A stretch of 64,000 bases of DNA from Alphaproteobacteria bacterium (GTDB lineage: Bacteria; Pseudomonadota; Alphaproteobacteria; Bin95). The position numbers were made by a program, and so were the translations under genes. Each line of letters opens with the position of its first letter. The stretch's first letter is position 1. Location of the stretch: contig CBDBGH010000003.1 of NCBI GenBank assembly GCA_965205265.1, positions 4,416,001 through 4,480,000 of the forward strand, written 5' to 3'. Below the pieces are notes generated by a model, which saw only the letters and a program-made list of their open reading frames with translations, was not told where the DNA came from and ran no database searches. Below are positions 3,740-59,808 of this stretch, piece after piece.

Positions 3740-4633
3740 TCAATCCTTGCGCGGCCTGGCGCTGTAGTCGCCGAAGGGGGCGTCGCGGGCGGCGGCGGTG
3801 CGGCGCATGCCCTGCTCGGCAAGGCTTTCGGCCCAGCGATAGGCTTCCTCTGTATGCCGCGTCATGCCGTCGAACAGCGTGCCGAGCAGTTGCGTCGTGC
3901 GCAGCCCCATATTCTCGAAGGCCTGGTTGATGAGCAGCTTGTTGAGGGCCAGCTGGTTGGCCGGAATGTGCTCGAAGCGCCTCGCGTGGGCCAAGGCGCG
4001 CTCGTCCAGCTCTTCCGGCGGGCAGACATGCGAGACGAGGCCGATGCGGTGCGCCGTTTCCGCGTCGATGGCGTCGCCGCTCAGCAGGAACTGCTTGGCG
4101 TGTTCGAGCCCGAGGCGATAGACCCAGAGCATCGTCGTGGGCGTGCCGTAGATCCGGGACGGCGCGTAGCCGATATAAGCGTCCTCGGCCATGAACAGCA
4201 GGTCGCAGCAGAGCACGAGGTCCGTGGCGCCCCCGACCGCCCAGCCATGTATCGCGCCCAGCACCGGCTTCGGGCAGTCCCATATCTTCATGAACCGCTC
4301 GACATTGCGCCCCATGCTGCGGTAGTCGCGCACCGGGTCCCAGGCGCCGGGGCGCGGCTCCGGGCGCGGCGCGTTGTAAGGCTGGGACCAGCCGGCCTCC
4401 AGCGAGGCGCCGGTCGCCTCCAGGTCGTAGCCGGCGGTGAACGCCCGCCCCTCGCCGCGCAGCACGACCGCGCGCACGGCGGCCGAGGCGGAGGCGCGGT
4501 CGATGGCGCCGGCCACGCCCTCGACCATCTCCTCGGTCAGCGTGTTCAGCCGTTCGGGGCGGTTGAGCGAGACGACGGCGACGGGGCCCCGCTCCTCATA
4601 GAGGACGACCGGGTCCGCCACGGGCGCTGTCAC
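3740..4633 (-). CDS. enoyl-CoA hydratase/crotonase family protein
   Basis: LNRPERLN, GRAFTAGYDL, KPVLGAIHGWAVGG. The GTG start at 4633 overlaps the upstream TGA (GTGA coupling). Confidence 0.85.
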   Translation of the reverse strand: MTAPVADPVVLYEERGPVAVVSLNRPERLNTLTEEMVEGVAGAIDRASASAAVRAVVLRGEGRAFTAGYDLEATGASLEAGWSQPYNAPRPEPRPGAWDPVRDYRSMGRNVERFMKIWDCPKPVLGAIHGWAVGGATDLVLCCDLLFMAEDAYIGYAPSRIYGTPTTMLWVYRLGLEHAKQFLLSGDAIDAETAHRIGLVSHVCPPEELDERALAHARRFEHIPANQLALNKLLINQAFENMGLRTTQLLGTLFDGMTRHTEEAYRWAESLAEQGMRRTAAARDAPFGDYSARPRKD

Positions 4634-4878
4634 TCCAGGCCCAGCAGCCGGTCGAGGGCCTCGCGGGTGAGCGCGTCGCCGGCGAGGAACGTCCCGTCCA
4701 CCTCTATGGCGGGCGTGCCCCTTATGCGGGCGGCGTCGAGGCGGTCCTGCGCGTCCTCGTCCATCATCAGGTCCCGCCGGGCAAACGCGACGCCGCGCGA
4801 CTCCAGATAGCGCTTCACCTGCTCGCAGGGCGCGCAGAGCGGCGTGGTGTAGAGCGTGACCTCCGGCGCCGCCGTCAT
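4630..4878 (-). CDS. glutaredoxin (NrdH/GrxC-like)
   Basis: LYTTPLCAPC (CxxC) and TPAIEVDG cis-Pro motif; ATG at 4878. Confidence 0.85.
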   Translation of the reverse strand: MTAAPEVTLYTTPLCAPCEQVKRYLESRGVAFARRDLMMDEDAQDRLDAARIRGTPAIEVDGTFLAGDALTREALDRLLGLE

Positions 4879-4883
4879 GGCGC

Positions 4884-5768
4884 TCACACCCTGCCCGCCG
4901 CGCGAAGCTGCCGGTATTCCTCCTTGCGCGCCATCCACTGGGCGTGCGTGGCCTCGTCCTGCCAGGGCTGCTCAGCGGTGAAGACGAGACGCTTCCAATC
5001 CTCGCCGGCGCTCCAGCGGAAGCCGGCCTCGCGCGTGGTGCGCGGCCCCTCGGCGGTTTCCAGCAGGTCGAGCGCCATCTGGAAGATTTGGCGCTGCTGG
5101 GCGGTGTCCCAGGGCTCGCCGCAGGGGCTGCCGAGCGGGAAGTCGGTGAAGACATAGCGGGCGACGCCGCAATGCTCGACAATGTCGCGCGCCGCCCCGA
5201 TCACCACGGTCGGGATGCCCGCCGCCTCGATATGCCTGCTGATCAGACTCACGGTCTGATGGCAGACGGGTCAGACAGGCACCATGAGGAGCGCGTCGAT
5301 GCCGTCCTCGCGGCACCAGGCCAGCGCCTTGGGCGCCTCCTCGGTCATCACCTTGCGCTTGCTGTAGTTGTTGTAGCAGCCGTAGAGCCGGTCCGGCATG
5401 CCCGCGACCCGCCCGTCCGCCACCGCCTCGCGCAGCCGGTCCACCGGGTAGTAGGCGTTCACGTCGTCCAGATGGGTGGCGAAGCGGTCGAAGGACGCGG
5501 TGCGGCTGTAGAGCTTCTCCGTCGGCGTGTCGGCGGAGAAGGAATAGACGCCGCGGAAGTCCTCCTCGACGACGGGGTTCTCCTCCGTCTCCGGGTCGTA
5601 GCGCACCGCGATCTCGCTGGTGCCGATCAGCCCGACGCGGCACTCGACAAGCGGCTTCGCGAGGCGCGCGAACGGCGCCTCCTCGAAATGCGCCCACTCA
5701 TAGGGCTTCTCATAGCCCTGCCGGATATAGTCCTCGCGCGTGCGGTCGATATAGCGCACCGGTTCCAT
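4884..5768 (-). CDS. glycine/sarcosine/betaine reductase selenoprotein B (GrdB/PrdB)-like protein with in-frame UGA (predicted Sec, VPV-U-PVC-HQTVSL)
   Basis: ORFs 5271..5828 and 4884..5252 are in the same frame and joined by TGA at 5273-5271. Read-through gives DALLMVPVUPVCHQTVSLISRHIEAAGIPTV...GVARYVFTDFPLGSPCG, the GrdB-like C-terminal signature. RBS GAAGGAGG precedes ATG 5768. Confidence 0.85.
5236..5265 (-). promoter_or_regulatory. candidate bacterial SECIS hairpin
   Basis: mRNA sense after the UGA: CTGC-C-ATCAGAC-CGTGA-GTCTGAT-CA-GCAG. Perfect 7-bp upper stem; loop G is 19 nt from the UGA. Confidence 0.7.
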
Positions 5769-5869
5769 GCATCCCTCCTTCCGGCCTCGTCCCGCCCGAT
5801 TAGACGCCCCGCGCCGCCCGACGGTCAAGACGGAACGGTCCGGATTGCGTTGACCGGCCGCGACATCCC

Positions 5870-6420
5870 CGGCGCGTCATGTTTCGTCATGCGGCGCCAT
5901 GAGCCTTCCTGGCGATGTGTCATGAAATGTCATGATCCGCATACCGAGGGTTTATATGCCGTAGCCGAATTGGGCATGAAGCCGTCCATTCGGGCAGGGG
6001 TTCCGGGTATTCCATCCGTGTTCCCGGACCTGGTGTTTTCGGCATGTGCCCTTCCTTTCGTTCCGTCTTCGCTCGTTCTGCCCGCCGCCGCGCCGAACGC
6101 GGCGAACACTGCGGATGGCGGCGTTGGCGCCGCCTTGGGCTCGCCGCGTAGCGGGACCCTGTTTCGCGCGTAATCCCGCGCGCGCCTGCGCCCGTGGGCG
6201 CGTGTTACGCGGCGGCGCGGTTCGTGCGCCTGATTGCGCGCGCGAGGCGGCGGACGCACCTTTCCCGTCGACTTCTCGGGTATTTTTTCGCGCCGGTGCG
6301 AAACGGCTCCCAGGACGCCGTTTCATTTCCTGCAAGGTACTGTAGCACAAGATCTGCGAAAATCAATTCATATCCAAGAATTATTACAAATAATTCATGA
6401 ACAATATGCTGGTGACAAAT
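5870..6420 (-). repeat. short copy of the element at ~58480-59740 (promoter, conserved leader, RBS, small ORF, phased CATGAC repeats)
   Basis: The reverse complement of 6200-6250 matches 58649-58701 at 48/51 plus a 2-nt indel. The promoter, GAACG-rich RBS region and CATGACATTTCATGACA end are also shared. Confidence 0.75.
6087..6134 (+). repeat. 48-bp dispersed repeat, copy 1
   Basis: 43/48 identical to the reverse complement of 24682-24729. Confidence 0.85.
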
Positions 6421-6425
6421 CTACG

Positions 6426-8009
6426 CTACGGCGCGGGGAGCAGCACGCCGGGGTTCATGATGCCGGCGGGGTCGAGCGCGGCCTTGGCGCCCTTGAGCGC
6501 GGCGGCGAAGATGTCGGAGCGCTGGCGGGTGTACCAGGGCATGTGGTCCCGCCCGACGGCGTGGTGGTGGGTGATGGTGCCGCCGGCGTCGATGATCGCG
6601 TCCGAAACCGCGTTCTTGACCGTGTCGTATTGGGCCGAAAGCCGGCCCTGCTCGCCGAGGCCGATAAAGGTGAAATAGGGCGCCGGCCCGTCGGGATAGA
6701 CATGGGTGAAACGGCAGGCGACGATTCCCGGACGCCCCGTCGCCTCCTGGAGCGCGCGCGCCGCCGCGCCCCCCACCTCGCGGTGGAAGTCCTCGAACCG
6801 GTCCCAGGTGATCGCAGTCTCGAAGGTCTCGCGGATGATGGCGCGCGCGGTCAGCATCTCGCGCATGTGCCCGCCCTTGATGAAGGCGTCGCGCCAGCGC
6901 GCGGCCGCGTTCCCGCCGCCGCCTCTCTCTTCCGGCAACCGGCCGCCATGGTCCCGGCAGCATTCGAGCGCGCGCGCCATCCAGGCGTCGAGCGCATGGT
7001 CGGCGCTCTCGAAACCCAGCACCAGCACCGCGGCCGAGCCGTCTCCGGCGCCCGACCAGCGCACCTCGTTATGATCCAGCAGGCGCAGATTGGCGGGATA
7101 GAGCCCGGCCTGGGAGATGGCGCGCACGGCCTCCGCCCCGTCCATGAAACGCGCGAACTCGACCGAGTGGCCGGCGCGGAAGCCCGGGCGGTCCTGCAGG
7201 CGCATCCAGGCCTCGGTGACGATGCCGAGTGCGCCCTCGGAGCCGAGGAAGAGCCGGTCGGGGCTCGGGCCCGCGCCGGAGCCGGGCAGGCGGAAGCTGT
7301 CGTGAACGCCCGCCGGCGTCACGGCGCGCACGCTCTCCGTCATGTCGTCGATATGGGTGAGCCCGGTGGCGTAGTGGCCGGCGCCGCGGGTCGCGATCCA
7401 GCCGCCCAGCGTCGAATATTCGAAGCTCTGCGGGTAGTAGCGGAGCGTCAGGCCGTGAGGCCGGAGCTGTTCTTCGAGGTGGGGACCGTACACGCCCGCC
7501 TGTATGCGCGCGGCGCGCGAGGTGCGGTCGATTTCCAGCACCTTGTCCATGGCGCCCATGTCGATGGAGACCGCGCCCTTGAAGCCGCCGCCGACTTGCG
7601 GATGCACCCCGCCCACCACGGAGGAGCCGCCGCCGAAGGGAATGGCCGCCGCGCCCGCCTCCGCGCACCAGTCGAGCAGCGCCGCAACCTCGCCCTCGTC
7701 GCGCGGGCGGGCCACCAGGTCCGGCGCGCCGGCGAAGTCGCGGTCCATGATGCGGACCTGCTCGTGGAACGAACGCCCGAAGGTGTGCACCAGGCGCTCC
7801 CACTTGTCGTCCGTGGTGACGGGCGCAAGCGAGGAAGGCGGCGCCAGGCGCGGCGGGGCGATCTCGATCTCGTCCACGGTCGGGAACGGCCGGGCCTCGA
7901 AGCCGTCAACCCCGAACACCGCGGCATAGTCCGCCTCGAAGGGCTTCATCTCCTCGTCGGTAAAGCCCTCGCCGACCTTGCCCCAACCCCAGAATTTCCG
8001 CCGCGCCAT
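6426..8009 (-). CDS. FAD-binding oxidoreductase (alkyl-DHAP synthase/GlcD-like)
   Basis: PFGGGSSVVGG, YPQSFEYSTLGGWIATR, GSEGALG, GGTITHHHAVG, LDPAGIMNPG; ATG 8009. Confidence 0.85.
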   Translation of the reverse strand: MARRKFWGWGKVGEGFTDEEMKPFEADYAAVFGVDGFEARPFPTVDEIEIAPPRLAPPSSLAPVTTDDKWERLVHTFGRSFHEQVRIMDRDFAGAPDLVARPRDEGEVAALLDWCAEAGAAAIPFGGGSSVVGGVHPQVGGGFKGAVSIDMGAMDKVLEIDRTSRAARIQAGVYGPHLEEQLRPHGLTLRYYPQSFEYSTLGGWIATRGAGHYATGLTHIDDMTESVRAVTPAGVHDSFRLPGSGAGPSPDRLFLGSEGALGIVTEAWMRLQDRPGFRAGHSVEFARFMDGAEAVRAISQAGLYPANLRLLDHNEVRWSGAGDGSAAVLVLGFESADHALDAWMARALECCRDHGGRLPEERGGGGNAAARWRDAFIKGGHMREMLTARAIIRETFETAITWDRFEDFHREVGGAAARALQEATGRPGIVACRFTHVYPDGPAPYFTFIGLGEQGRLSAQYDTVKNAVSDAIIDAGGTITHHHAVGRDHMPWYTRQRSDIFAAALKGAKAALDPAGIMNPGVLLPAP

Positions 8010-8094
8010 CGCCCCGTCTCCCTGTCGCAGGCGGGAATTCTGGCATGCCGGCCGCCGGGGCGGAAGGGGCAACGGCGTATTGCAGTTGTATTCG

Positions 8095-8108
8095 ATATTG
8101 GTCAATAT
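8095..8108. promoter_or_regulatory. palindromic operator candidate upstream of the TA operon
   Basis: ATATTG-GT-CAATAT, about 30 bp upstream of the antitoxin start. Confidence 0.5.
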
Positions 8109-8138
8109 GAGGACAATCATAAGCAGGAGGGCCAGTCC

Positions 8139-8405
8139 ATGGGGCGCGCAATGACGATGACAGTTCGCCTGAGCGGCCCGCTCAGTGATTTCGTTGCGGC
8201 CAATGTCGGCGAGACCGGCGACTATGAGAGCGTCAGCGAGTATGTCCGCGACCTGATACGGCGGGACAAGGCCCGCTCGGAGCAGGAGGCCTTCGACCGC
8301 CTCAAGGCGGAGCTGGAACGCGCCTTCGCGGCACCGGACGATACCTATCGTGAATTGTCCGCCGGCGACATAATTTCGCGAAGCGGGGCGCGGCCCGGCG
8401 CATGA
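8139..8405 (+). CDS. ParD-like ribbon-helix-helix antitoxin (CC2985 type)
   Basis: MTVRLSG...G.YESVSEYVRDLIRRD; RBS AGGAGG; ATGA overlap with the toxin. Confidence 0.85.
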   Translation: MGRAMTMTVRLSGPLSDFVAANVGETGDYESVSEYVRDLIRRDKARSEQEAFDRLKAELERAFAAPDDTYRELSAGDIISRSGARPGA

Positions 8406-8716
8406 CAAGGGTACGCGTCCAGAGGGCCGCCGCACTCCGTATCGAGGAAATCTACCGCTACAGCCGCGAGCGCTGGGGCGAAGCCCAGGCGGAATCCTAT
8501 GTCACGGGCCTGTTCGAAGCCTTCGATGACATCGCAACCGGCGCGGTCGCGTCGCGCCCGGTTCCGGCGGAGTTCGGAGTGGAGGGCTATGTCTTCCGCT
8601 ACCGGAGGCATTTCATCTACTGGAAGACCCTGAGCGACGGAGCGATCGGCATCGTCACCGTACTTCACGAACGCATGCACCGGGTCGAACGCTTCCAGGA
8701 AGACCGCGAGCCGTAA
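8402..8716 (+). CDS. RelE/ParE family toxin
   Basis: IEEIYRYS.ERWG..QA..Y, HFIYW and VLHERM motifs. Confidence 0.85.
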   Translation: MTRVRVQRAAALRIEEIYRYSRERWGEAQAESYVTGLFEAFDDIATGAVASRPVPAEFGVEGYVFRYRRHFIYWKTLSDGAIGIVTVLHERMHRVERFQEDREP

Positions 8717-10683: not shown

Positions 10684-12026
10684 GGCCGCCGCGATAGCAC
10701 GACGAAGCGCGCGCACAGAAGCCCCAGCGAGATAGCCGTCGAAAGGATCACCGCCTCGAACAGCCCGGCCACGCCCCGCTCCAGCCCGAACGCCAGCAGC
10801 AGCGAGAGCGGCACCATGCAGCCGATGAAGGCGAAGGCCTGTAGCGCCGTCGGCACCCAGGCGTCGGCGCAGCCGCGCAGCGCGTTCAACATCAGAGTCT
10901 GCCCGCCGTCGAAGAGGGGCATGAGCCCGGCCAGCACCAGCACCGGGACCGCGGCCGCAAGCACGGCGGCTTCCGACGAGTAGATGGCGGCGAGGGGCCG
11001 GGCGAGCACCGCCATGAGCGCGCCCGAGGCGGCCATGAGGACGATCGTGACCGCAAGCCCCATCCAGCCGGCGGCGATCCAGCGCCGCCGGTCGCCGCGC
11101 CCGTACGCATTGCCGATGCGAACGCTGGTGGCGATGCCGACGCCGTTCGCCACCATGAAGATGACCGAGATGACATTCAGCACGATGGTGAAGACCGCAA
11201 GCGGGACCGTGCCGAGCCAGCCGGCGAACAGGTGGATGGCAGTGAAGGCGCCCATCTCGACGGCGATGGCGACGGCCGCGGCGTAGCCCACCATCCGCTG
11301 CACCCGCCAGCGCCGCCAGCGCCAGTCGGCGCGGGCGCGGACGCCCAGCCGCGTCCGGTCCGGCATCCACCAGGCCCAGGCGAGCAGGAACGACGCGAGC
11401 CCCCAGCGTATGCCGGTGGTGGCCCAGGCGGAGCCCTCCGCGCCCAGCTCCGGCAGGCCGAACAGGCCGTGGACCAGCAGCAGGTCGGCCGGGATGTTGA
11501 CCAGATTGGCGGCGACGATGGCCCAGGCGGCCGGGCGCGGGCGCCGCACGCCTTCGAGGAAGAAGGCGGTGGCGAAATAGAGGAAGGCGGCCGGATAGCC
11601 GAGCGCCAGGATGAAGAAGACCCGTCCGGCGCCCGCCGCCACATCCCCGCTCTGCCCGGTGAGCAGCAGCACCTCGCGCCCGAACATCCCGAGCAACAGG
11701 CCGACAATGCCGAAGGCGAGCGCGACCGGCACGGCGCGCCGCCAGGCCGCGCCGCTCTCGGCCTCCTCGCCGCGCCCCATGGCCTGCGCCGCCGCGACTG
11801 TGGTGCCGGTGAGCAGCCCCATCGCGGTCAGCAGCAGCGGCAGATAGACCGCGACGCCGAGCGAGAGATATCCCAGTTCCGCCGAGGAGTAGCGGCCGAC
11901 GATGATCGTGTCGGCCACTGTCATCGCCAGCACGCCGGCGCGGCTCACCACCACCGGCAGGGCGAGCCGGTAGAGGTCGGCCAGATGGCCGAGGACGAGG
12001 CGGCGGCGAAGGCGCATGGGCGGCAA
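10680..12026 (-). CDS. MATE family efflux transporter
   Basis: LALPVVV...DTIIVGR, GLPELGAEGSAWAT, SVRIGNAYG. Confidence 0.88.
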   Translation of the reverse strand: MPPMRLRRRLVLGHLADLYRLALPVVVSRAGVLAMTVADTIIVGRYSSAELGYLSLGVAVYLPLLLTAMGLLTGTTVAAAQAMGRGEEAESGAAWRRAVPVALAFGIVGLLLGMFGREVLLLTGQSGDVAAGAGRVFFILALGYPAAFLYFATAFFLEGVRRPRPAAWAIVAANLVNIPADLLLVHGLFGLPELGAEGSAWATTGIRWGLASFLLAWAWWMPDRTRLGVRARADWRWRRWRVQRMVGYAAAVAIAVEMGAFTAIHLFAGWLGTVPLAVFTIVLNVISVIFMVANGVGIATSVRIGNAYGRGDRRRWIAAGWMGLAVTIVLMAASGALMAVLARPLAAIYSSEAAVLAAAVPVLVLAGLMPLFDGGQTLMLNALRGCADAWVPTALQAFAFIGCMVPLSLLLAFGLERGVAGLFEAVILSTAISLGLLCARFVVLSRRP

Positions 12027-12072
12027 TCGGCCTTTCTGTTAGCGTCGCGGGCAGCGGCGGGAGGCGGGGCCC

Positions 12073-13545
12073 ATGCGGATTGCGGTCGGTGGATTTCACC
12101 ACGAGACGAATACTTTTGCGCCGACAAAGGCAAGCTTCGAGATGTTCCGCCGCGCCGACGGCTGGCCGGGGCTCTGCCGGGGCGAGGCCGTTCTTGCCGA
12201 TACCGCCGGCATAAACCTGCCGATAGCGGGCTTTCTGGAGGCGGCGCGCGCCTCCGGCCGCGACTTCGCGCCGCTGGCCTGGGCGAATGCCAGCCCCTCG
12301 GCCGAGGTCGAGGAAGAAGCCTTTGAGCGCATCGCCGGCATGATCGTGGACGGCCTGCGGGGCGCGGGGCCGGTGGACGCGGTCTATCTGGACCTGCACG
12401 GCGCGATGGTGGCCGAGCATCTGGAGGACGGCGAGGGCGAGCTGCTGCGCCGCGTGCGCGATGTCATCGGCCCGGATGTGCCCGTCGTGGCGAGCCTCGA
12501 CCTGCATGCCAATGTCTCGCCGCTCATGGCGGAGAAGGCGGACGCGCTGGTCGTCTTCCGCACCTATCCGCATGTGGACATGGCGGATACGGGCGCACGC
12601 ACGGCCCGCCTGCTGGAGCGCATCCTCGCCGAGGGGCGGCCGGCCAAGGCGTTCCGGCAGGTCCCCTTCCTCATCCCGCTGACGGCGCAATGCACGCTGG
12701 TGGAGCCGGCGGCGGGCCTCTATGCGGGTCTGGATGGACGGGAGCGGGGCGCCGTCTGCTCCGTCTCGCTCGCAGGCGGCTTCCCGCTCGCCGACACGCC
12801 GGATTGCGGTCCGGCCGCGCTCGCCTATGCCGGCGACGGGCGGAGTGCTGCGGAAGCGGCCGACGCGCTGGCGGACGCGGTGCTGGCGGTGCGCGGGCGC
12901 TTCGCCGCCGATTTCCTTTCGCCCGAGGAGGTGGTGGCGCGCGCCGACCGGGTAGGGCGCGCTGGCCGGCCGGCCGTCATTGCGGACAGTTGCGACAATC
13001 CGGGCGGCGGCGGCGACGGCGACACGACGGGCCTCCTGCGGGCGCTGGCAGCCGCGCGGCCGGAGGGCGCGGTGCTGGGCCTCCTGATCGACGCCGAAGC
13101 CGCCGCCGCCGCGCATGAGGCGGGCGAAGGCGGGCGCCTCTCGCTCGCGCTCGGCGGGCGCTCCGGCATTCCGGGCGACGCGCCCTTCGAGACCGACGCT
13201 GTCGTGCGCCGGCTCGGCGACGGGTCGTTCACCTGCACAGGGCCGTTCTACGGCGGCAACCGGATGCAGCTCGGGCCGATGGCGCTGCTGGAGATTGCCG
13301 GCGGCGTGCGGGCGGCGGTGGCGAGCCGCAAGGTGCAGGCGGCGGACAAGGAAATGTTCCGCCATCTGGGCGTGGAGCCGGCGGACTGCCGCATTCTGGC
13401 ACTCAAGAGCTCGGTGCATTTCCGCGCCGATTTCGGGCCGATCGCAGGCGAGGTGCTGATCGCGGCCGCGCCCGGCCCGGTGGCGGCGGACCCGGGCACG
13501 CTCGCCTTCACCCGACTTCGTCCGGGCGTGGCCAGGAGGCCCTGA
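12073..13545 (+). CDS. M81 family metallopeptidase (MlrC-like)
   Basis: GFHHETNTF, LDLHGAMV, SLDLHAN, RTYPHVD, DNPGGG, KSSVHFRADF. Confidence 0.9.
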   Translation: MRIAVGGFHHETNTFAPTKASFEMFRRADGWPGLCRGEAVLADTAGINLPIAGFLEAARASGRDFAPLAWANASPSAEVEEEAFERIAGMIVDGLRGAGPVDAVYLDLHGAMVAEHLEDGEGELLRRVRDVIGPDVPVVASLDLHANVSPLMAEKADALVVFRTYPHVDMADTGARTARLLERILAEGRPAKAFRQVPFLIPLTAQCTLVEPAAGLYAGLDGRERGAVCSVSLAGGFPLADTPDCGPAALAYAGDGRSAAEAADALADAVLAVRGRFAADFLSPEEVVARADRVGRAGRPAVIADSCDNPGGGGDGDTTGLLRALAAARPEGAVLGLLIDAEAAAAAHEAGEGGRLSLALGGRSGIPGDAPFETDAVVRRLGDGSFTCTGPFYGGNRMQLGPMALLEIAGGVRAAVASRKVQAADKEMFRHLGVEPADCRILALKSSVHFRADFGPIAGEVLIAAAPGPVAADPGTLAFTRLRPGVARRP

Positions 13546-16424: not shown

Positions 16425-18632
16425 CTACCCGCCTTTGCCGTACGGATTCGCCGCAGGCCCGCCGCCCGCCTCGTCTTCGCCGCCAGCAGGCGGAACCGGC
16501 GCATAGTGGGCCGGAACCGCGCCGCCCGCCGCGAGGCGCCGGCGGGCCTCCGCCGGCGTCTCGACCAGCGCCGCGGCCGCCAGCGCCGCCTTGCGGTCCA
16601 CCGGGTCGGGCGCGTGGCGGTCCGGCGGCGGCATCGCATCGGCGTGGTAATAGGCGATCTTCTGGCGCGCCGCATCGACCCGCTTGGCCGGATCGATCTC
16701 GCGCTCATTGGCGCCCTTCGCGGCGACCGTGACGCCGTCCACGATCTCGTGGTCGAACCACCATTTCTTCACGAGATTGCGCCGGCCGTTGCCGAGCCGG
16801 TCGTCGAGCCAGGTGGCGACCGGCACGAGCGCCGGCTTCAGGAACATCGCATTGACGCCGAGCCAGCTCGCCATGCGCGGCAGGAGGCCGCCGTCCATGT
16901 CCACCACCTTGTTGAGCGGACAGGTCTTCATGCAGCGCCCGCAGGCCGAGCCGCGCATGTTGGTGAGCCGGTAGCGGGTGCAGCGCTCCACGTCCGGCTT
17001 CCACATCTCGTAGCCGTTGAACATCACCTTGTCCCCGTGCGGAATGGCGTCGCAGGGGCATTCCCGGTCGCATTTGTGGCAATGGTCGCAGAAATACTGG
17101 AGGCCGAAATCTATCGGCTGGTCCACCTCCATCGGCATGTCGGTGGTGAGCACCACGGACTTGAAGCGCGGGCCGACAAAGGGATTGAGCACCAGCTCGC
17201 CGATGCGGCTGAGCTCGCCCAGCCCCGCCCAGAGCAGCAGCGGGATGTGCAACACGTCGCTGTCCGCATTGGTCTGGGCGCGGGAGGGGAAGCCCAGGCC
17301 GCGCAGCGTCTCGCCCATGATGCCGGCGATCTCCGCGCCGCGCAGATAGCCGCGCATGGACTGCGCGCCGGAAATCCAGTCGTCGCCGCTCGCCCCCTCC
17401 ATGGTGTCGTAGCCCTGGTCGATCAGCATGACGACGGCATAGCGGTGGTACATCTCTATCGGGCTGCCGTCCTCCCGGTGCGAGAACCAGGCGTAGCGTG
17501 GAATCTCGCAAATGCCCGTGAGGTCGGAGCCCAGGAAATAGGAGAGCGCCTTGACCGCGCGGGCATTCGCCGCCGGGTCGCCATAGCGATCCCTGTCCCC
17601 CTCCGGAGCTGCTTCGCCGTCCTGGTGGGGCACCATGGCGCGGATAAGCTGGAGCTGGGAGAAGGAGAGCGGATGCTTGAAGGCGAAGCGGGCGCGCTCG
17701 CGCCGGGACTTCTCGCCGAGGTCGCCCTTGGCCGCGCGGGTGAAGAAGGCGGCGCGCTGCGGCACGCGCGGCACCTCCTCGTCGATGATGAGGGTGGTCG
17801 GCCGGTCCACGCGGCGGACCTGCTCCATCGGGTAGCGGCTCCAGTGCGACTTGCGCCTTGCGCGCCGCGCGCGCTCGCGGCCGGAGACCGCGCCGGCGAT
17901 GCCCTTGCGGTAAGCCCGGCCCTGCGCTCGCGCGGCGCCCGGGGCCAGCGGGCTGTCGCACTCCAGTTCGTAGTTGGTCGAGATTACGGCGAGCGCGAAC
18001 CCGCCCTCGATATAGGGGTTGCGCAGCCCGCCGCCTTGCCTGCGCAGGCAGAGCCCGGCCAGCACGGCGAGCCGTTCCAGATCGAGGCTCTCGCCGCCGG
18101 CATGGTGGATGCGGGCCTCGAAGCCCATCTGGCGGATATGGCCGGCGGTGCAGCCGGCGATCTCGAGCACGCGCATCTCGGCCGTGGCGGCAACGGCCTC
18201 CTCCACCCAGGCGCGGGCGAGATTGCCCCGATCCGGCAGGGCGGGACAGGCGACCAGGATGACGACCGCGTGGCTGTGGCCTTCCAGCGCCGGGCAGCCT
18301 TCCAGCCAGGCGTTCTCCGGGATCCGGCAGATGCCGACCTGGTCGGCGTCCATGAAATAGGAGCAGCCCTTGATGTCCTCGGCGCGCCGGTCGAGCCGGG
18401 CCGGCACGGGCGCCGTCTCCGCCGCCGGCCCGCCTTCCGCGAAGCCGGCGAACAGCTCGCGGTAATGCAGCACGGCCGGCCCGAGCGCCCCGCCGGCCTC
18501 CGCAGCTTCCGTGGGCCCGGCCGGGGGCTGCGCCGCCTCCGCCGCGGTCACGGTCCCGTCGCGCGGCAACACCTCCATCGGATAGGTGCCGAGATGGAAC
18601 GGCCGGTTCTTCGATGCGTGGTGGAACAGCAT
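16425..18632 (-). CDS. rdhA: cobalamin-dependent reductive dehalogenase, catabolic NpRdhA/BhbA type
   Basis: GLGELSRIG, NPFVGPRFKS..LTTDMP, two Fe-S motifs (FCDHCHKCDRECPCDAI, CGRCMKTCP), duplicated N-terminal domain, no Tat signal. Confidence 0.85.
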   Translation of the reverse strand: MLFHHASKNRPFHLGTYPMEVLPRDGTVTAAEAAQPPAGPTEAAEAGGALGPAVLHYRELFAGFAEGGPAAETAPVPARLDRRAEDIKGCSYFMDADQVGICRIPENAWLEGCPALEGHSHAVVILVACPALPDRGNLARAWVEEAVAATAEMRVLEIAGCTAGHIRQMGFEARIHHAGGESLDLERLAVLAGLCLRRQGGGLRNPYIEGGFALAVISTNYELECDSPLAPGAARAQGRAYRKGIAGAVSGRERARRARRKSHWSRYPMEQVRRVDRPTTLIIDEEVPRVPQRAAFFTRAAKGDLGEKSRRERARFAFKHPLSFSQLQLIRAMVPHQDGEAAPEGDRDRYGDPAANARAVKALSYFLGSDLTGICEIPRYAWFSHREDGSPIEMYHRYAVVMLIDQGYDTMEGASGDDWISGAQSMRGYLRGAEIAGIMGETLRGLGFPSRAQTNADSDVLHIPLLLWAGLGELSRIGELVLNPFVGPRFKSVVLTTDMPMEVDQPIDFGLQYFCDHCHKCDRECPCDAIPHGDKVMFNGYEMWKPDVERCTRYRLTNMRGSACGRCMKTCPLNKVVDMDGGLLPRMASWLGVNAMFLKPALVPVATWLDDRLGNGRRNLVKKWWFDHEIVDGVTVAAKGANEREIDPAKRVDAARQKIAYYHADAMPPPDRHAPDPVDRKAALAAAALVETPAEARRRLAAGGAVPAHYAPVPPAGGEDEAGGGPAANPYGKGG

Positions 18633-18689
18633 GGCCCCGCCGCCTTGTCCGCGCTCAGCAGGGACTCCAGCCCGCCGCCCGCCCCGCTG

Positions 18690-19856
18690 TCAACCGGCCC
18701 CGAGCGTCTCGACGGCGTGGCGGCCGATGATGTTGCGCTGAATCTGGTTGGTGCCTTCGACGATCTGGAGCACCTTGGCGTCGCGGAAGAAGCGCTCGAC
18801 GGGATTGTCGGCCGAAATGCCGGCTGAGCCCCAGAGCTGCACCGCGTCGGTCGCGACCGACATGGCGGCGTCGGTCGCCAGGCATTTCGCCATCGCCGCC
18901 CAGGGCGCAAGCGCGCGGCCCGAAACGCCCGTATCCGCAAGCGCGGCGGCCTTGTAAACCATCTGCCGGGCGGCCTCGGTGCGCATGGTCATGTCGGCCA
19001 GCATCCAGCGCACGCCCTGGAAGTCCGCGACCGGCTGCCCGAACGCCTCGCGCCCGCGCACGAACGCCGCCGCCAGGTCGAGCGCGCCCTGCGCCAGCCC
19101 CACGCCGCGCGCGCCGATCATCGGGCGCGAACGGTTGAACGCCTCCATCACCGTCAGCCACCCCTCGCCCTCCGGCCCGATGCGGTTCTCCTCCGGCACG
19201 AAGGCGCCGTCGAAGAAGAGCGGGCAGGAGGGGATGCCGCGCGAGCCGAGCTTGCGCTCCAGAGCGCCGATGGTGAGGCCGGGCGTTCCCTTCTCGACCG
19301 CGAACACGGAAATGCCGCGGTGGCGCGCGCCCGGATCGGTCTTTGCCGCGACGACGATGAAATCGGCTTCCGGGCTGTTGGTGCACCAGGCCTTGGCCCC
19401 GTCGAGGCGGTAGCCGCCCGGCTCGCGGACCGCGCGCGTGCGGATGCCGGCGGCGTCGGAGCCGGATTGCGGCTCGGTGACGGAGATCGCGGCCTTCAGA
19501 TCGCCACTAGCGAGGCCCGGCAGCCAGCGCTCATGCTGCTCGGGTGAGCCGCCCGCCAGCACGGCGGCAAAGGGCGTCCACTGGACGAGCAGCAGATAGG
19601 CGGTGTTGTAGCACACGCGCCCCAGCTCCTCGATGACGAGACAGCCGGAGAGCACGCTGTCCGCGCCGCCATAGCGCTCCGGGAAGGGCAGGGCGAAAAG
19701 GCCGAGGTCCCGCAGCGCCGCGAACATGTCATGCGGATAGGCCGCCTCCCGGTCGATCTCCGCCGCGCGCGGCACCACCTTCTCGCGGGCAAACGCGCGC
19801 ACCGTGTCGCGTAGCAGAAGCTGTTCCCCGCTGAGCCCGAAATCCTCCGCGAGCAC
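18690..19856 (-). CDS. acyl-CoA dehydrogenase
   Basis: TEPQSGSD, R.AFGQP...FQG, ERFFRDAK..QI.EGT.QIQR. Confidence 0.9.
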   Translation of the reverse strand: MLAEDFGLSGEQLLLRDTVRAFAREKVVPRAAEIDREAAYPHDMFAALRDLGLFALPFPERYGGADSVLSGCLVIEELGRVCYNTAYLLLVQWTPFAAVLAGGSPEQHERWLPGLASGDLKAAISVTEPQSGSDAAGIRTRAVREPGGYRLDGAKAWCTNSPEADFIVVAAKTDPGARHRGISVFAVEKGTPGLTIGALERKLGSRGIPSCPLFFDGAFVPEENRIGPEGEGWLTVMEAFNRSRPMIGARGVGLAQGALDLAAAFVRGREAFGQPVADFQGVRWMLADMTMRTEAARQMVYKAAALADTGVSGRALAPWAAMAKCLATDAAMSVATDAVQLWGSAGISADNPVERFFRDAKVLQIVEGTNQIQRNIIGRHAVETLGAG

Positions 19857-22215: not shown

Positions 22216-25841
<3,626 letters not shown>

Positions 25842-25844
25842 GGA

Positions 25845-26966
25845 TCACACGCGCATCGGCATCAGCACATAGAGCGCGCTCGAATCCACCATGTCGCGCA
25901 CCACTGTAGGCGCTGCCGGGTCGGCGAGCTCGAGCGCCGCCGTGCCGCCTTCGATGCGGCGCAGAATTTCGAGCAGGTAGCGGGCGTTGAAGCCGATCTC
26001 CATCGGCGCCCCGTCGAACCGCACGTCGATTTCCTCCGTCGCCGTGCCGTAGGTCGGGTCGGCGGCGGAAAGCTGGACGCTGCCCGTGTCGATGGCGAGC
26101 TTGACCGCCCGGGTGCGCTCGGAGGAGATCGCCGACACGCGGTCCACCGCCTCGGCCAGCGTACCGCTTTCGACTTCGAGCCGCTTGTCGTTGCCGGCCG
26201 GGATCACGCGCTCATAGTCGGGGTAAGTGCCGTCGATGAGCTTGGAGGTGAGCTCGACGCTGCCGATGACGAACCGGATTCCGGTTTCGGACAGCGCAAT
26301 CGAGACATCCCCGTCTTCGCCCTCCAGCAGCTTGCGGAGCTCCTGCACCGCCTTGCGCGGCACGATCACGCCGCCCGGCATGTCCTCCGCGCCCGCCGGC
26401 CTCGGCACCTCGACCCGCGCCAGCCGGTGACCGTCGGTCGCGACCGCGCGCAGTACCGGCACGCCCTCATGCTCCGTGGTGTGCAGGTAGATGCCGTTCA
26501 GGTAGTAGCGCGTTTCCTCGGTGGAGGCGGCGAAGCCGGTCCGGTCGATCAGGCCGCGCAGGTCCTCGGCGGCAAGCTGGAAACGGCAGGCGAACTCGGC
26601 CTTGGACAGCTCCGGGAACTCTTCCGGCGGCAGAGCGGAAAGCGTGAAGGTGGACCGCCCGCAGCGCAGCCTTATGCGGTCCGAGCCGTCCTCGGTCTCC
26701 AGCTCCACCTGCGCGCCGTCGGGCAGCTTGCGGGCGATGTCGTAGAGCACCTGCGCCGGCAGCGTGGTGCCGCCGCCCGAGACCGCGTCGGCGTCCACAG
26801 TCTCCACGGCGCCCAGCTCCAGGTCGGTCGCCGAGAGGCGCAGCCGCCCGTCCGCCGCTTCGAGCATGACATTGCCCAGAATCGGGATGGTGTTGGCCCG
26901 TTCGACCACGCTCTGCGCATGGCTGAGCGATTTCAGGAACTGGCTGCGTTCGATGGTGAGCTTCAT
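25845..26966 (-). CDS. dnaN: DNA polymerase III beta clamp
   Basis: MKLTIER, ATDLE, ETRYYLNG, ATDGHRLA, VLMPMRV. Confidence 0.98.
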   Translation of the reverse strand: MKLTIERSQFLKSLSHAQSVVERANTIPILGNVMLEAADGRLRLSATDLELGAVETVDADAVSGGGTTLPAQVLYDIARKLPDGAQVELETEDGSDRIRLRCGRSTFTLSALPPEEFPELSKAEFACRFQLAAEDLRGLIDRTGFAASTEETRYYLNGIYLHTTEHEGVPVLRAVATDGHRLARVEVPRPAGAEDMPGGVIVPRKAVQELRKLLEGEDGDVSIALSETGIRFVIGSVELTSKLIDGTYPDYERVIPAGNDKRLEVESGTLAEAVDRVSAISSERTRAVKLAIDTGSVQLSAADPTYGTATEEIDVRFDGAPMEIGFNARYLLEILRRIEGGTAALELADPAAPTVVRDMVDSSALYVLMPMRV

Positions 26967-47224: not shown

Positions 47225-47300
47225 GGGCCCGTAGTTCAGCGGTCAGAACCCGCCGCTCATAACGGCGTTGTCGCAGGTTCGAATCCTGCCGGGCCCACCA
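47225..47300 (+). tRNA. tRNA with CAT anticodon, probably tRNA-Ile2 (lysidine)
   Basis: GGGCCCG/CGGGCCC acceptor stem, CGCCG-CTCATAA-CGGCG anticodon arm, GGTTCGAATCC T loop, encoded CCA; the G1-C72 pair argues against fMet. Confidence 0.93.
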
Positions 47301-58415: not shown

Positions 58416-58523
58416 CCCGGCTGGCGCGCCGGCTATGGACCGGACGAGACATGCGAATCCGGCGGCCGGCCGGTATGAAACATGGATTGTTCGAAATAAT
58501 CGAGTAATATTTCTCTATAAGGA

Positions 58524-58550
58524 TTGCATTCTCAGAAAGTGTGCTATTAT
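58524..58550 (+). promoter_or_regulatory. candidate sigma70 promoter of the TerS-like element
   Basis: TTGCAT then extended -10 TGcTATTAT in an AT-rich patch (spacer only 15 nt); counterpart TTGATT-N16-TACAGT with TG extension on the minus strand at ~6339-6366. Confidence 0.5.
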
Positions 58551-58804
58551 GGGCCCGAGGGAAGCGGCGTCCATGGACCGCGTCCCGCCCGCGCCGGCCC
58601 GGTGCGGAGCGACCCCGATTCAGCCGACAGGCGAAGTGCGTCCTGTGCCCGCCTCGCGCGCGGGCAATCAGGCGCGCGAACCGCGCCGCCGCGAAACGCG
58701 CCCGCCCGCGCACAGGCGCCCGCGCAGGATACGCGCGGTAAAGGGTCGCTCCCTGCCGGGCGGTGCGCCGAACGAACGCGAACCGGAACGAAGGAGCCGC
58801 ACCC

Positions 58805-59731
58805 ATGCCCGTGCTCGACCCGACCCTCTCCCTCTCCTCCCGACAGGAAGCCTTCTGCCGCCACTACACAGCCTCCGGCAATGCCGCAGACGCCGCAAGG
58901 CGCGCCGGCTATGCCGAACGCTCCGCAAGGCAGACCGGCTCCGCCCTGCTGGAACGCCCCTGGATCGTGGAGCGGGTGCGGCGCATCCGCATGTCGTGGC
59001 GGCGCACCGAGCGGGACGAGGCGCAGATCGTGCTCGCCCGTCTGGAGCAGGCCTGGGATGCGGCGGTCGCCAGCGGGTCCGCCTACATGATGGTCCGGAT
59101 CGTCCGCTTCCAGGCGGAGATTGCGGGGCTGACGCAGCCCGCCAACCGGGCGGCGCTCTGGTCGATGCCGGAGGAGGACGAGTTCGGCGAGATCGAGGCC
59201 GGCGAGGCGCAGGAGGCCGGCACCGTGCCGGGACCCCTGGCCGAGGCCGTGCGCCACGGCCGTGCCCGCGCCGAACGCGCCCTTGCCCGCCATTGCGGGA
59301 ACAGGGAGGCGATGGAGGCAGGGGAAGGCTTCGACGGGGCCGCCCATGCGCAGGTTGCCGCAAGGCTCACGGCGGCCGTCGAGGAGCGCGAGAGCCTGCC
59401 CGTCCGCTTCGACCCGCCGCCGCCCGCACCGGCCAACGACCTTCCCCTCGCTGACGACCCGCCCGAAGACACCTACGACCCGGAGCGGTTCCCCGGCGAG
59501 TGGGCCGACGGCGACCGCCCGGGCGAGGAGGAACGCGCCGAGGGCGCGGAAACCGACTGGCTCTACCAGCGCCGCAACGACTATGCCGAGATCCACGACC
59601 CCTGGTCGCCGGAAAACATCGAACGCCGCCAGGCCGACAGCCTCAACCGGCTCGAGAATGGGCCGCCCCCTTCGACCCGCCCCGCAACCCCGGTCTCGCA
59701 CCCGACCATGACATTTCATGACATCCCATGA
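58805..59731 (+). CDS. terminase small subunit-like HTH protein with acidic/Pro-rich tail
   Basis: LSSRQEAFCRHY..SGNAADAARRAGYAERSARQTGSALL matches the TerS N-terminal HTH pattern; RBS AAGGAG. Confidence 0.7.
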   Translation: MPVLDPTLSLSSRQEAFCRHYTASGNAADAARRAGYAERSARQTGSALLERPWIVERVRRIRMSWRRTERDEAQIVLARLEQAWDAAVASGSAYMMVRIVRFQAEIAGLTQPANRAALWSMPEEDEFGEIEAGEAQEAGTVPGPLAEAVRHGRARAERALARHCGNREAMEAGEGFDGAAHAQVAARLTAAVEERESLPVRFDPPPPAPANDLPLADDPPEDTYDPERFPGEWADGDRPGEEERAEGAETDWLYQRRNDYAEIHDPWSPENIERRQADSLNRLENGPPPSTRPATPVSHPTMTFHDIP

Positions 59732-59733
59732 CA
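59707..59733 (+). repeat. 3 x CATGACA direct repeats with 10-bp period
   Basis: catgacattt catgacatcc catgaca at 59707, 59717 and 59727. Confidence 0.8.
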
Positions 59734-59808
59734 CGCTGCAAACTCCCGGCGTCCGGGGTGGCGAAAAGGAGGGCGCATGATTCCACAGGCATCGGGAGGG
59801 GATGCGGC

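Follow-up and report, generated by a model that had tools for sequence, protein, structure and literature searches.

The window analysed here, 64,000 nucleotides (nt) of alphaproteobacterial DNA, contains two copies of one repeated cassette of about 1.35 kb, which consists of a promoter, a 5' hairpin, a leader, a ribosome-binding site, an open reading frame (ORF) and a repeat array. Copy B (58473-59742, plus strand) encodes a protein resembling phage small terminases (TerS). Copy A (5870-6420, minus strand), the main subject of this analysis, shows the same blocks around a very small ORF, and our data support it being a gene-depleted derivative of the element represented by copy B in which both end regions are kept.

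Copy A lies between the stop codon of an ORF for a flavin adenine dinucleotide-linked oxidase (6426-8435) and a GrdB/PrdB-like ORF starting near 5768. Read on the minus strand, similarity to other copies starts at about 6420 with an AT-rich head (6339-6420) containing a promoter-like site, TTGATT-N16-TGcTACAGT, i.e. a -35 element TTGATT (6361-6366), a spacer of 16 nt and a TGn-extended -10 element TACAGT (6339-6344). The first structure of the presumed transcript is hairpin H1 (6297-6330), the arms GAAACGGC ... GCCGTTTC representing a compensated form of this hairpin. It is followed by a GC-rich leader body (6046-6296) holding a core (6155-6273; GCAATCAGGCGCACGAACCGCGCC...) and the ribosome-binding site GGAACGAAAGGAAGG directly before an ATG. 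In place of the TerS-like gene we found a remnant ORF of 41 codons (5920-6045; MPKTPGPG...ADHDIS and stop) with its TGA stop codon inside the repeat and an end, ..ADHDIS, resembling the C-termini of the family; it shows no similarity to the TerS N-terminus, and the nhmmer match of the family profile stops at 6053. The 3' end is formed by arrays of CATGAC(A) with a period of 10 nt (5876-5934), two units at 5918-5934 being followed by a second array of three CATGRC units (CATGGC/CATGAC/CATGAC) at 5876-5901, which is absent from the preliminary description of this region.

Copy B starts with a 5' head and promoter-like site (58473-58556), composed of a -35 element TTGCAT (58524-58529), a 15-nt spacer and a TGn-extended -10 element TATTAT (58545-58550). 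The leader (58557-58804) contains H1 (58558-58588), the conserved core (58622-58747) and the ribosome-binding site GGAACGAAGGAG, and keeps 112 of the 115 columns conserved in the family. The TerS-like ORF (58805-59731; 927 nt, 308 amino acids) encodes an N-terminal small-terminase helix-turn-helix (HTH) domain of the G1P type, to which the first ~115 residues belong, long helices and an acidic, disordered C-terminal two-thirds. Three CATGACA units with a 10-nt period form the array (59707-59733), the stop codon TGA (59729-59731) being placed in the third unit; together the three units put TGA and ATG in all three frames.

Shared architecture of the two copies

The minus strand of 5870-6420 and the plus strand of 58473-59742 have the same set of blocks in the same order, and every block named in the preliminary description was recovered in both copies. 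These comprise the AT-rich head ATTGTTC..GTAATA.TTCT..ATTG..TGTGCTA (copy A 6339-6420, minus strand; copy B 58486-58550, plus strand), CGGCGTCC and GTGCGTCC in conserved order, AGGGTC, and then GGAACGAA(A)GGA...ATG. Using blastn within the window, 6155-6273 (minus strand) aligns to 58622-58747 (plus strand) with 78.7% identity over 127 columns (E 8e-23). The exact 17-mer CATGACATTTCATGACA is present in both copies (5918-5934, minus strand; 59707-59723, plus strand), 0.01 matches being expected, and a search allowing up to 3 mismatches gave 3 matches, a number reached by none of 100 shuffles. The preliminary description had made its claim dependent on the A/B alignment exceeding shuffled sequence, and it clearly does so: local alignment of copy A with the copy B leader scores 118, compared to a mean of 24.6 (standard deviation 3.7, maximum 43) for 300 dinucleotide shuffles (z = 25.5). 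Furthermore, an nhmmer DNA profile built from 20 full copies, copy A being excluded, matches 6053-6420 (minus strand) with an E-value of 1.3e-29. Chance similarity of the two copies is ruled out by the blastn match, the shared 17-mer and the shuffle z-score. The conserved core of about 51 nt is present as described before, identity peaking over about 45 nt around GCAATCAGGCGCNCGAACCGCGCCGCCGCG, but the count of 48 identical positions out of 51 was not reproduced. The replacement of the TerS-like ORF of about 900 bp by about 125 bp agrees closely with the 927 nt in copy B and the 126 nt in copy A.

As for the remainder of the window, gyrB, recF and dnaN follow one another at 22216-26966 (minus strand), suggesting that the window probably adjoins the chromosomal replication origin. 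The recF ORF exceeds the end of the RecF model by about 36-45 residues and overlaps the gyrB start (ATGA). The sole tRNA gene in the window (47225-47297) does not adjoin either cassette, and metabolic genes and insertion sequence (IS) elements are the neighbours, with no large terminase or other phage gene seen in the window. The GrdB/PrdB-like ORF downstream of copy A, within 4630-5828 (minus strand), contains an in-frame TGA at 5271-5273 (..VPVUPVC..) and is followed by a glutaredoxin ORF (4630-4938); the GrdB/PrdB-like ORF matches Pfam GRDB (E 0.005) and NCBIfam PrdB (E 1e-9) without reaching their curated thresholds.

A dispersed family of TerS-like cassettes

We found at least 346 relatives of the TerS-like protein. 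The 120 listed show 63-97% identity, and all but one of these carry the Pfam domain PF03592; several relatives originate from one contig. A genome scan yielded 78 loci (L numbers in the following), which, apart from two distant matches, belong to metagenome-assembled genomes (MAGs) of uncultured Alphaproteobacteria or Rhodospirillaceae, two long-read MAGs contributing at least 13 and at least 12 loci, respectively. The source genome of the window is not among the fetched loci, and none of these has flanks in common with the two copies of the window. Copies were counted by running the DNA profile of 20 full copies on the fetched loci and the window. The earlier proposal was to fall if no further copies existed; the profile search detected 82. 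Full copies account for 29 of these, 28 are cut by a contig or locus end, many short-read contigs ending within the gene or element, and 10 have both ends with an internal part missing. By nhmmer, four consist of the 5' part only and four of the 3' part only, and the remaining seven are internal parts from distant lineages. Copy A and the minus-strand copy of L011 (L011b), both classified by nhmmer as 5' part only, show the 3' array by eye, resulting in a total of 12 gene-depleted copies with both ends kept among the 54 copies not cut by contig ends. Only one copy of the close family lacks an end, namely its 5' part. The cassettes sit in intergenic DNA in either orientation, the flanks beyond promoter and array being unrelated, and the 108 neighbouring proteins from 27 loci belong to unrelated metabolic genes and to IS elements. 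Neither 72,556 plasmids nor 50,697 phage records contained a tblastn match to the protein at an E-value of 1e-5.

In one MAG, palindromic GC-rich repeats resembling repetitive extragenic palindromes (..CTCCCCTCCCGC..GCGGGAGGGG..) abut several cassettes on either side, i.e. in the 5' flanks of L018, L031, L032, L044 and L049 and in the 3' flanks of L014, L020 and L053; these are possibly a preferred neighbourhood or insertion target.

The copy B protein matches Pfam Terminase_2 (PF03592) with residues 11-85 (E 4e-13; 50.6 bits at a cut-off of 26.1), and the N-terminal HTH of the phage small terminase (G1P type) is found in copy B, copy A having no such ORF. An AlphaFold2 model based on a 22-row alignment is confident only for the HTH (residues ~10-60, predicted local distance difference test (pLDDT) >90), the rest being long helices and disorder. 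Comparison with the PDB by Foldseek identified the DNA-binding domain of SF6 G1P (4zc3; target-normalised template modelling (TM) score 0.82, root-mean-square deviation 0.8 A, 40% identity over 50 residues) and also 2cmp, and sequence-profile searches against the PDB (4zc3, 2cmp, 3zqp) and PHROGs (phrog_51) returned small terminases only. Searching 1.84 billion representatives with phmmer gave 37 clusters at E <= 1e-30, and beyond these terminases of about 150 amino acids matching residues ~10-115 only. Since ordinary TerS proteins align to this N-terminal part alone, the C-terminal ~190 residues are specific for the family, in which the protein has a length of 300-330 amino acids. NCBIfam and an Atlas search gave no match, and PADLOC-DB 2.0 gave 0 families at E <= 0.01. 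An enzyme hidden in the C-terminal two-thirds was considered and rejected, as the model contains only helices and disorder there, Foldseek found no match beyond TerS, and NCBIfam, PADLOC and Atlas were empty. The protein is under purifying selection, the ratio of nonsynonymous to synonymous substitution rates (dN/dS) being 0.04-0.49 in the 9 of 10 copy pairs that allow its calculation; in the tenth pair dS is about 0 in the N-terminal part.

In alignments of the DNA on both sides of the gene, one and the same layout recurs across the genomes. A site of the form TTGNNN-N14-18-TANNNT immediately precedes the hairpin in 50 of 57 copies, 43 of these having the TGn extension. For the 8-bp stem of H1, 41 distinct copies have 93.6% of cells paired, compared to 49-65% with the partner slid; the stem shows compensatory changes in 4 of its 8 pairs and a covariation score reached by 0 of 500 shuffles, supporting H1 as a structure and as the sole leader fold to survive testing. 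The GC-rich leader has a length of 250-300 nt with 115 columns conserved to at least 90% among 53 long forms. Rfam 15 gave no leader match, neither in the window at gathering scores nor for either copy at E <= 1. The minimum-free-energy folds have z-scores of -4.1 for the copy B leader and -0.3 for that of copy A; RNAalifold on the raw 57-row alignment predicts 22 pairs, 1 of them compensatory. A consensus fold of the leader body pairs 88.8% of cells with covariation not above controls, 16 of 500 shuffles reaching its score and 156 of 500 its count of pairs changed on both sides. A global leader fold was rejected on the basis of the copy A z-score and the lack of covariation support for the consensus core fold.

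Separate from the cassette proper, the copy A leader contains a foreign small interspersed repeat of 54 nt (6081-6134), which matches window positions 24682-24735 (plus strand) at 87-90%. The non-conserved tail of the recF ORF contains this second copy in antisense direction, 10-63 nt before gyrB starts, and the recF-gyrB junction was considered as an antisense target. We dropped this in favour of an interspersed repeat, because the segment is found also outside cassettes in three other loci. There it forms GC-rich repeats of about 50 nt (L006 12229-12388, three tandem units; L038 2775-2823; L031 5426-5477). At the leader position of the copy A insert, 12 further cassette copies carry another insert of about 60 nt and different sequence.

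The array consists of 2-4 CATGAC(A) units, all 41 within-array spacings in 23 full copies being 10 nt, and is retained even in lineages with only 48-50% protein identity (L040, L045). Reading from the anchor ATG, the frame runs to a TGA within the array in 20 of the 25 loci displayed; in the remaining five the ORF is interrupted or has a different start. After masking the nhmmer-defined copies together with 60 nt on their 5' side and 120 nt on their 3' side, the background of 1.05 Mb contains CATGAC pairs with 10-nt spacing at 12 positions only. Five of these belong to the arrays of copies A, L011b and L053b, which have lost the gene, and the other seven lie in L014, L025, L046 and L050, those in L025, L046 and L050 following a TerS-like gene at a distance of up to about 1 kb. 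Some of the extra or solitary arrays (L046 11600-11640 and 11848-11870; L050 11340 and 11898; L014 1617; L025 988) follow genes of divergent lineages, others occupy two sites without a recognisable cassette. In the 5' head of copy A, GTTCATGAA(A)T (6387-6408, minus strand) resembles the 3' unit TTCATGACA in identical orientation and is found also at the 5' ends of L076, L019 and L058; in copy A it belongs to a 15-nt palindrome, and it could be a weak site for a protein binding the array. The motif TGGAGTGGGCC follows the array in several copies.

IS elements are found at several arrays. An IS110-family element (341-amino-acid transposase, ~1.38 kb, 99.7-100% identical) has the same position in or beside the array in four cassettes of one MAG (L016 ~10997-12440, L049 ~11070-12450, L032 ~11336-12718 and L053 ~17958-19339, minus strand). 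This shared position and the CATGAC units on both sides suggest the array being a specific target of the element. In another MAG, IS3-family copies (98.9-100% identical; L007 11088-12217, L035 11050-12202, L058 10365-11574) are found, in both orientations, no more than about 100 nt away from the 3' ends of three cassettes.

Evolution of the copies and origin of gene-less forms

Cassette sites are stable, MAGs with flanks of 88-95% identity carrying the cassette at one site (L007/L015, L011/L053, L035/L044, L040/L045 and a set of six MAGs). The positional orthologues L007/L015 show 75.7% identity in the element versus 88-91% in the flanks; the identity of paralogues in a single genome amounts to 77-90.5% and 80.5-88.9%. 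The leader tree groups by genome, not by position. As judged from these sequence comparisons, the copies evolve in concert within a genome. The pair L007/L008 is a mosaic with nearly identical coding sequences (dS about 0-0.02) at an overall identity of 90.5%. Unlike the cassette paralogues, the IS110 and IS3 elements at these loci have copies of 98.9-100% identity, arguing for the cassette being an old dispersed family kept alike by exchange between copies and not an actively transposing IS.

The gene-depleted copies fall into two classes. In the first, internal deletions have spared the N-terminal codons and the C-terminal tail (L058, L066, L068, L071, L076, L077, L078, L064); the second comprises short forms with a tiny ORF between ribosome-binding site and array (A, L011b, L026b, L053b), the small ORFs of the other three short forms being unrelated in sequence. 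Fuller genes are present at the sites of L076, L068 and L064 in other MAGs (L039, L043, L046 and relatives), and therefore at least three deletions arose in place. L076 and L078, located on different chromosomes of one MAG, have one deletion junction in common, are 88% identical with unrelated flanks and have sister leaders. A recurrent microhomology deletion at this junction is unsupported, because only one of the 8 full copies in that MAG contains the 8-nt microhomology, and contains it once; the deleted allele therefore reached the second locus by mobilisation or conversion.

The leaders of the short forms reach no more than 70-74% identity to any other one, that of copy A no more than 70%. 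Out of the 115 conserved columns copy A matches 92, compared to 107-112 in four long forms checked; the four short forms match 64-84% of these columns, the four long ones 93-97%. The long form L010 keeps 97% of the conserved columns although it is equally divergent at variable columns, and L011b is devoid of the invariant core. The leader of copy A shows relaxed constraint, and copy A is best read as a relic, since 20% of the leader positions kept by intact copies are lost.

We consider it somewhat better than an even chance that copy A is an old gene-less relic of a cassette whose TerS-like protein binds the array and whose copies are homogenised by recombination or gene conversion. According to this model, an oligomeric TerS-like protein would bind the phased CATGACA array beside its own gene, as a small terminase binds its packaging site (pac), protein and site forming a functional unit. 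Such binding is suggested by the gene and an array phased at one helical turn co-occurring even at 48-50% protein identity. The cassettes would spread and be homogenised mainly through recombination or gene conversion between copies, not by a transposase. Gene-less copies such as copy A would persist because their cis sites remain and they pair with intact copies, undergoing slow decay. The promoter of copy A may still fire into the co-directional selenoprotein operon, which would be incidental.

Several observations weigh against this model. The link between protein and array rests on co-occurrence and on the analogy with small terminases. The AlphaFold2 model is poor as a whole (mean pLDDT 63, predicted TM score 0.30), and Foldseek gave weak E-values, none of them better than 0.03. 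Among the 108 neighbour proteins of 27 loci we saw neither a large terminase nor any other phage gene, and a pac-like role would therefore have no visible partner. The model leaves both the strict sequence conservation of the leader body and the first arrival of copies at new loci, the latter not being provided by gene conversion, unaccounted for. Moreover, the common junction of L076/L078 fits mobilisation of a deleted copy as well as conversion. Finally, copy A still has a promoter-like site, H1, a ribosome-binding site and an ATG, the intactness of which may leave room for some function.

The preliminary description had taken copy A for a non-autonomous derivative resembling miniature inverted-repeat transposable elements (MITEs) and keeping both cis ends. 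On such a reading, the two ends would be moved in trans by machinery recognising them, namely the TerS-like protein of intact copies with or without a host or phage enzyme. Gene depletion with retention of both ends stands, and the pattern recurs in 12 of 54 copies. What did not hold are the hallmarks of transposition, as we found no terminal inverted repeats, target-site duplications or transposase partner and saw no near-identical copies among those compared. There are no terminal inverted repeats at the ends of copy B, and the sole end-spanning pair of copy A (5854-5874/6446-6466) is only 71% complementary and lies partly within neighbouring coding sequence. No target-site duplication abuts both ends in 12 copies inspected by eye, the 5' boundary being fuzzy by +/-10 nt. 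A transposase-coding full-length partner was not found: the partners with the same ends, copy B and the 29 full copies, encode only an HTH and helical protein, in which Pfam, NCBIfam, AlphaFold2 and Foldseek revealed no transposase or recombinase domain and no catalytic fold able to move DNA. The window holds one short form, its nearest leader being 70% identical, and near-identical copies were not seen among the leaders compared, whereas the IS elements at the same loci are nearly identical. The deletions in place at orthologous sites and the relaxed constraint on short-form leaders speak against mobility as well, and an empty site could not be demonstrated, just 77 nt of flank being left in L026 for the single candidate (L026 versus L029). 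In favour of mobility are the retention of both ends compared to the one close-family copy without an end, the junction shared by L076/L078, three short forms encountered incidentally in the flanking DNA (about 1.05 Mb), and the many short-read contigs breaking within the element. The excess of copies with both ends fits cis-acting ends, and fits also exchange with intact copies and selection against deletions entering neighbour genes. Taken together, we regard mobilisation of copy A as a MITE-like element as rather unlikely. Like MITEs, the gene-less forms are short derivatives of a longer gene-bearing partner that keep both ends, in many intergenic copies of either orientation; unlike MITEs, the cassette has no terminal inverted repeats, target duplications or transposase partner, and its copies are old and diverged.

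It appears quite improbable that copy A was taken over and retained as promoter and 5' leader of the GrdB/PrdB-like selenoprotein-glutaredoxin operon. As proposed earlier, copy A does lie just upstream of this operon in the same direction, the array ending about 100 nt before the start near 5768. Its promoter-like site and the absence of a predicted terminator between copy A and the selenoprotein gene (scan of 5600-6700) make read-through into this gene possible, and in co-directional loci the next gene usually begins within about 90 nt of the array. However, cassette and downstream gene point in the same direction at only 15 of 31 loci, i.e. at random orientation, and promoter donation is therefore not a function of the family. 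A separate promoter-like sequence, TTGACC-N18-TCTAAT, read from the sequence and not scored by the scan of this region, lies between array and operon, and a needed leader should not have lost 20% of its conserved positions.

Highly improbable is the short form being a functional gene for a non-coding RNA, made up of promoter, structured leader and repeat, with the TerS-like ORF as optional cargo: all four short forms keep the promoter-like site, H1 with compensatory changes, the ribosome-binding site, the ATG and an ORF ending in the array, and three of the four keep 80-84% of conserved versus 50-57% of variable columns, but their loss of conserved positions proceeds at about five times the rate seen in long forms of equal divergence such as L010, the invariant core is deleted in L011b, the small ORFs are not conserved, no Rfam family matches, and the leader body shows no significant covariation.

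Relation to packaging systems and meaning

Pac sites are often located in or beside terS. The cassette shares with the G1P small terminase and pac of SPP1/SF6 the homologous N-terminal HTH, the long helices following it as in TerS oligomerisation cores, and phased direct repeats at the end of the gene. In contrast to G1P, the cassette protein is about twice as long owing to the family-specific C-terminal ~190 residues, an adjacent large terminase or phage genes are missing, and the cassettes are chromosomal and multi-copy with no match in phage or plasmid collections, each copy having its own promoter and long conserved leader.

Phage satellites such as phage-inducible chromosomal islands (PICIs), including the Staphylococcus aureus pathogenicity islands (SaPIs), carry their own TerS and pac, the minimalist version being the PICMI (PMC10803314). 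They resemble the cassette in having a small-terminase-like gene outside a phage, beside a candidate packaging site, with minimal gene content. The cassette, with one ORF in 1.35 kb, is devoid of the integrase, replication, regulatory and capsid-remodelling genes; it is present in 12 or more copies per genome, is stable at orthologous sites across species and has no known helper. By none of the defining features tested is it a member of the PICI/PICMI group.

ParR-parC and ParB-parS are pairs of a site and its binding protein, and dispersed gene families can stay alike by gene conversion. The cassette resembles these in its concerted dispersed copies and in having the gene of a DNA-binding protein beside phased direct repeats. 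It differs in lacking a partition ATPase, in every site having its own gene, promoter and leader, and in its similarity stopping sharply at promoter and array. Full-text searching of the literature revealed nothing on this cassette family, a passage of PMC4222105 concerning an ordinary phage. The cassette fits no described mobile element, and the family itself is more interesting than copy A.

Protein-array binding might serve packaging initiation for a helper phage or gene transfer agent (GTA), act as a decoy or contribute to chromosome organisation, all of these being possible. Speculatively, and in our view unlikely, the cassette could be a recombinase-less selfish unit of TerS plus pac, marking a dozen or more arrays as packaging starts for the motor of a helper phage or GTA and re-entering chromosomes by homologous recombination. 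Host DNA beside such cassettes would then also be carried to other cells, and gene-less copies would be served in trans via their CATGACA arrays, as the equivalent of a MITE at the level of packaging.

In annotating these genomes, a gene called as terminase small subunit does not indicate a prophage, and gene-less copies such as 5870-6420 would be treated as relics, not as regulatory inventions. If the model of a TerS-like protein binding its own array is true, a phage packaging-recognition module has left phages and multiplied in bacterial chromosomes as a self-contained unit of promoter, leader, gene and site, a case without a counterpart in the literature found by full-text searching. This would bear on the choice of host DNA for transduction or GTA-like transfer in uncultured symbionts, on how repeated cassettes stay alike without a transposase and on how IS110-type elements choose repeated targets.

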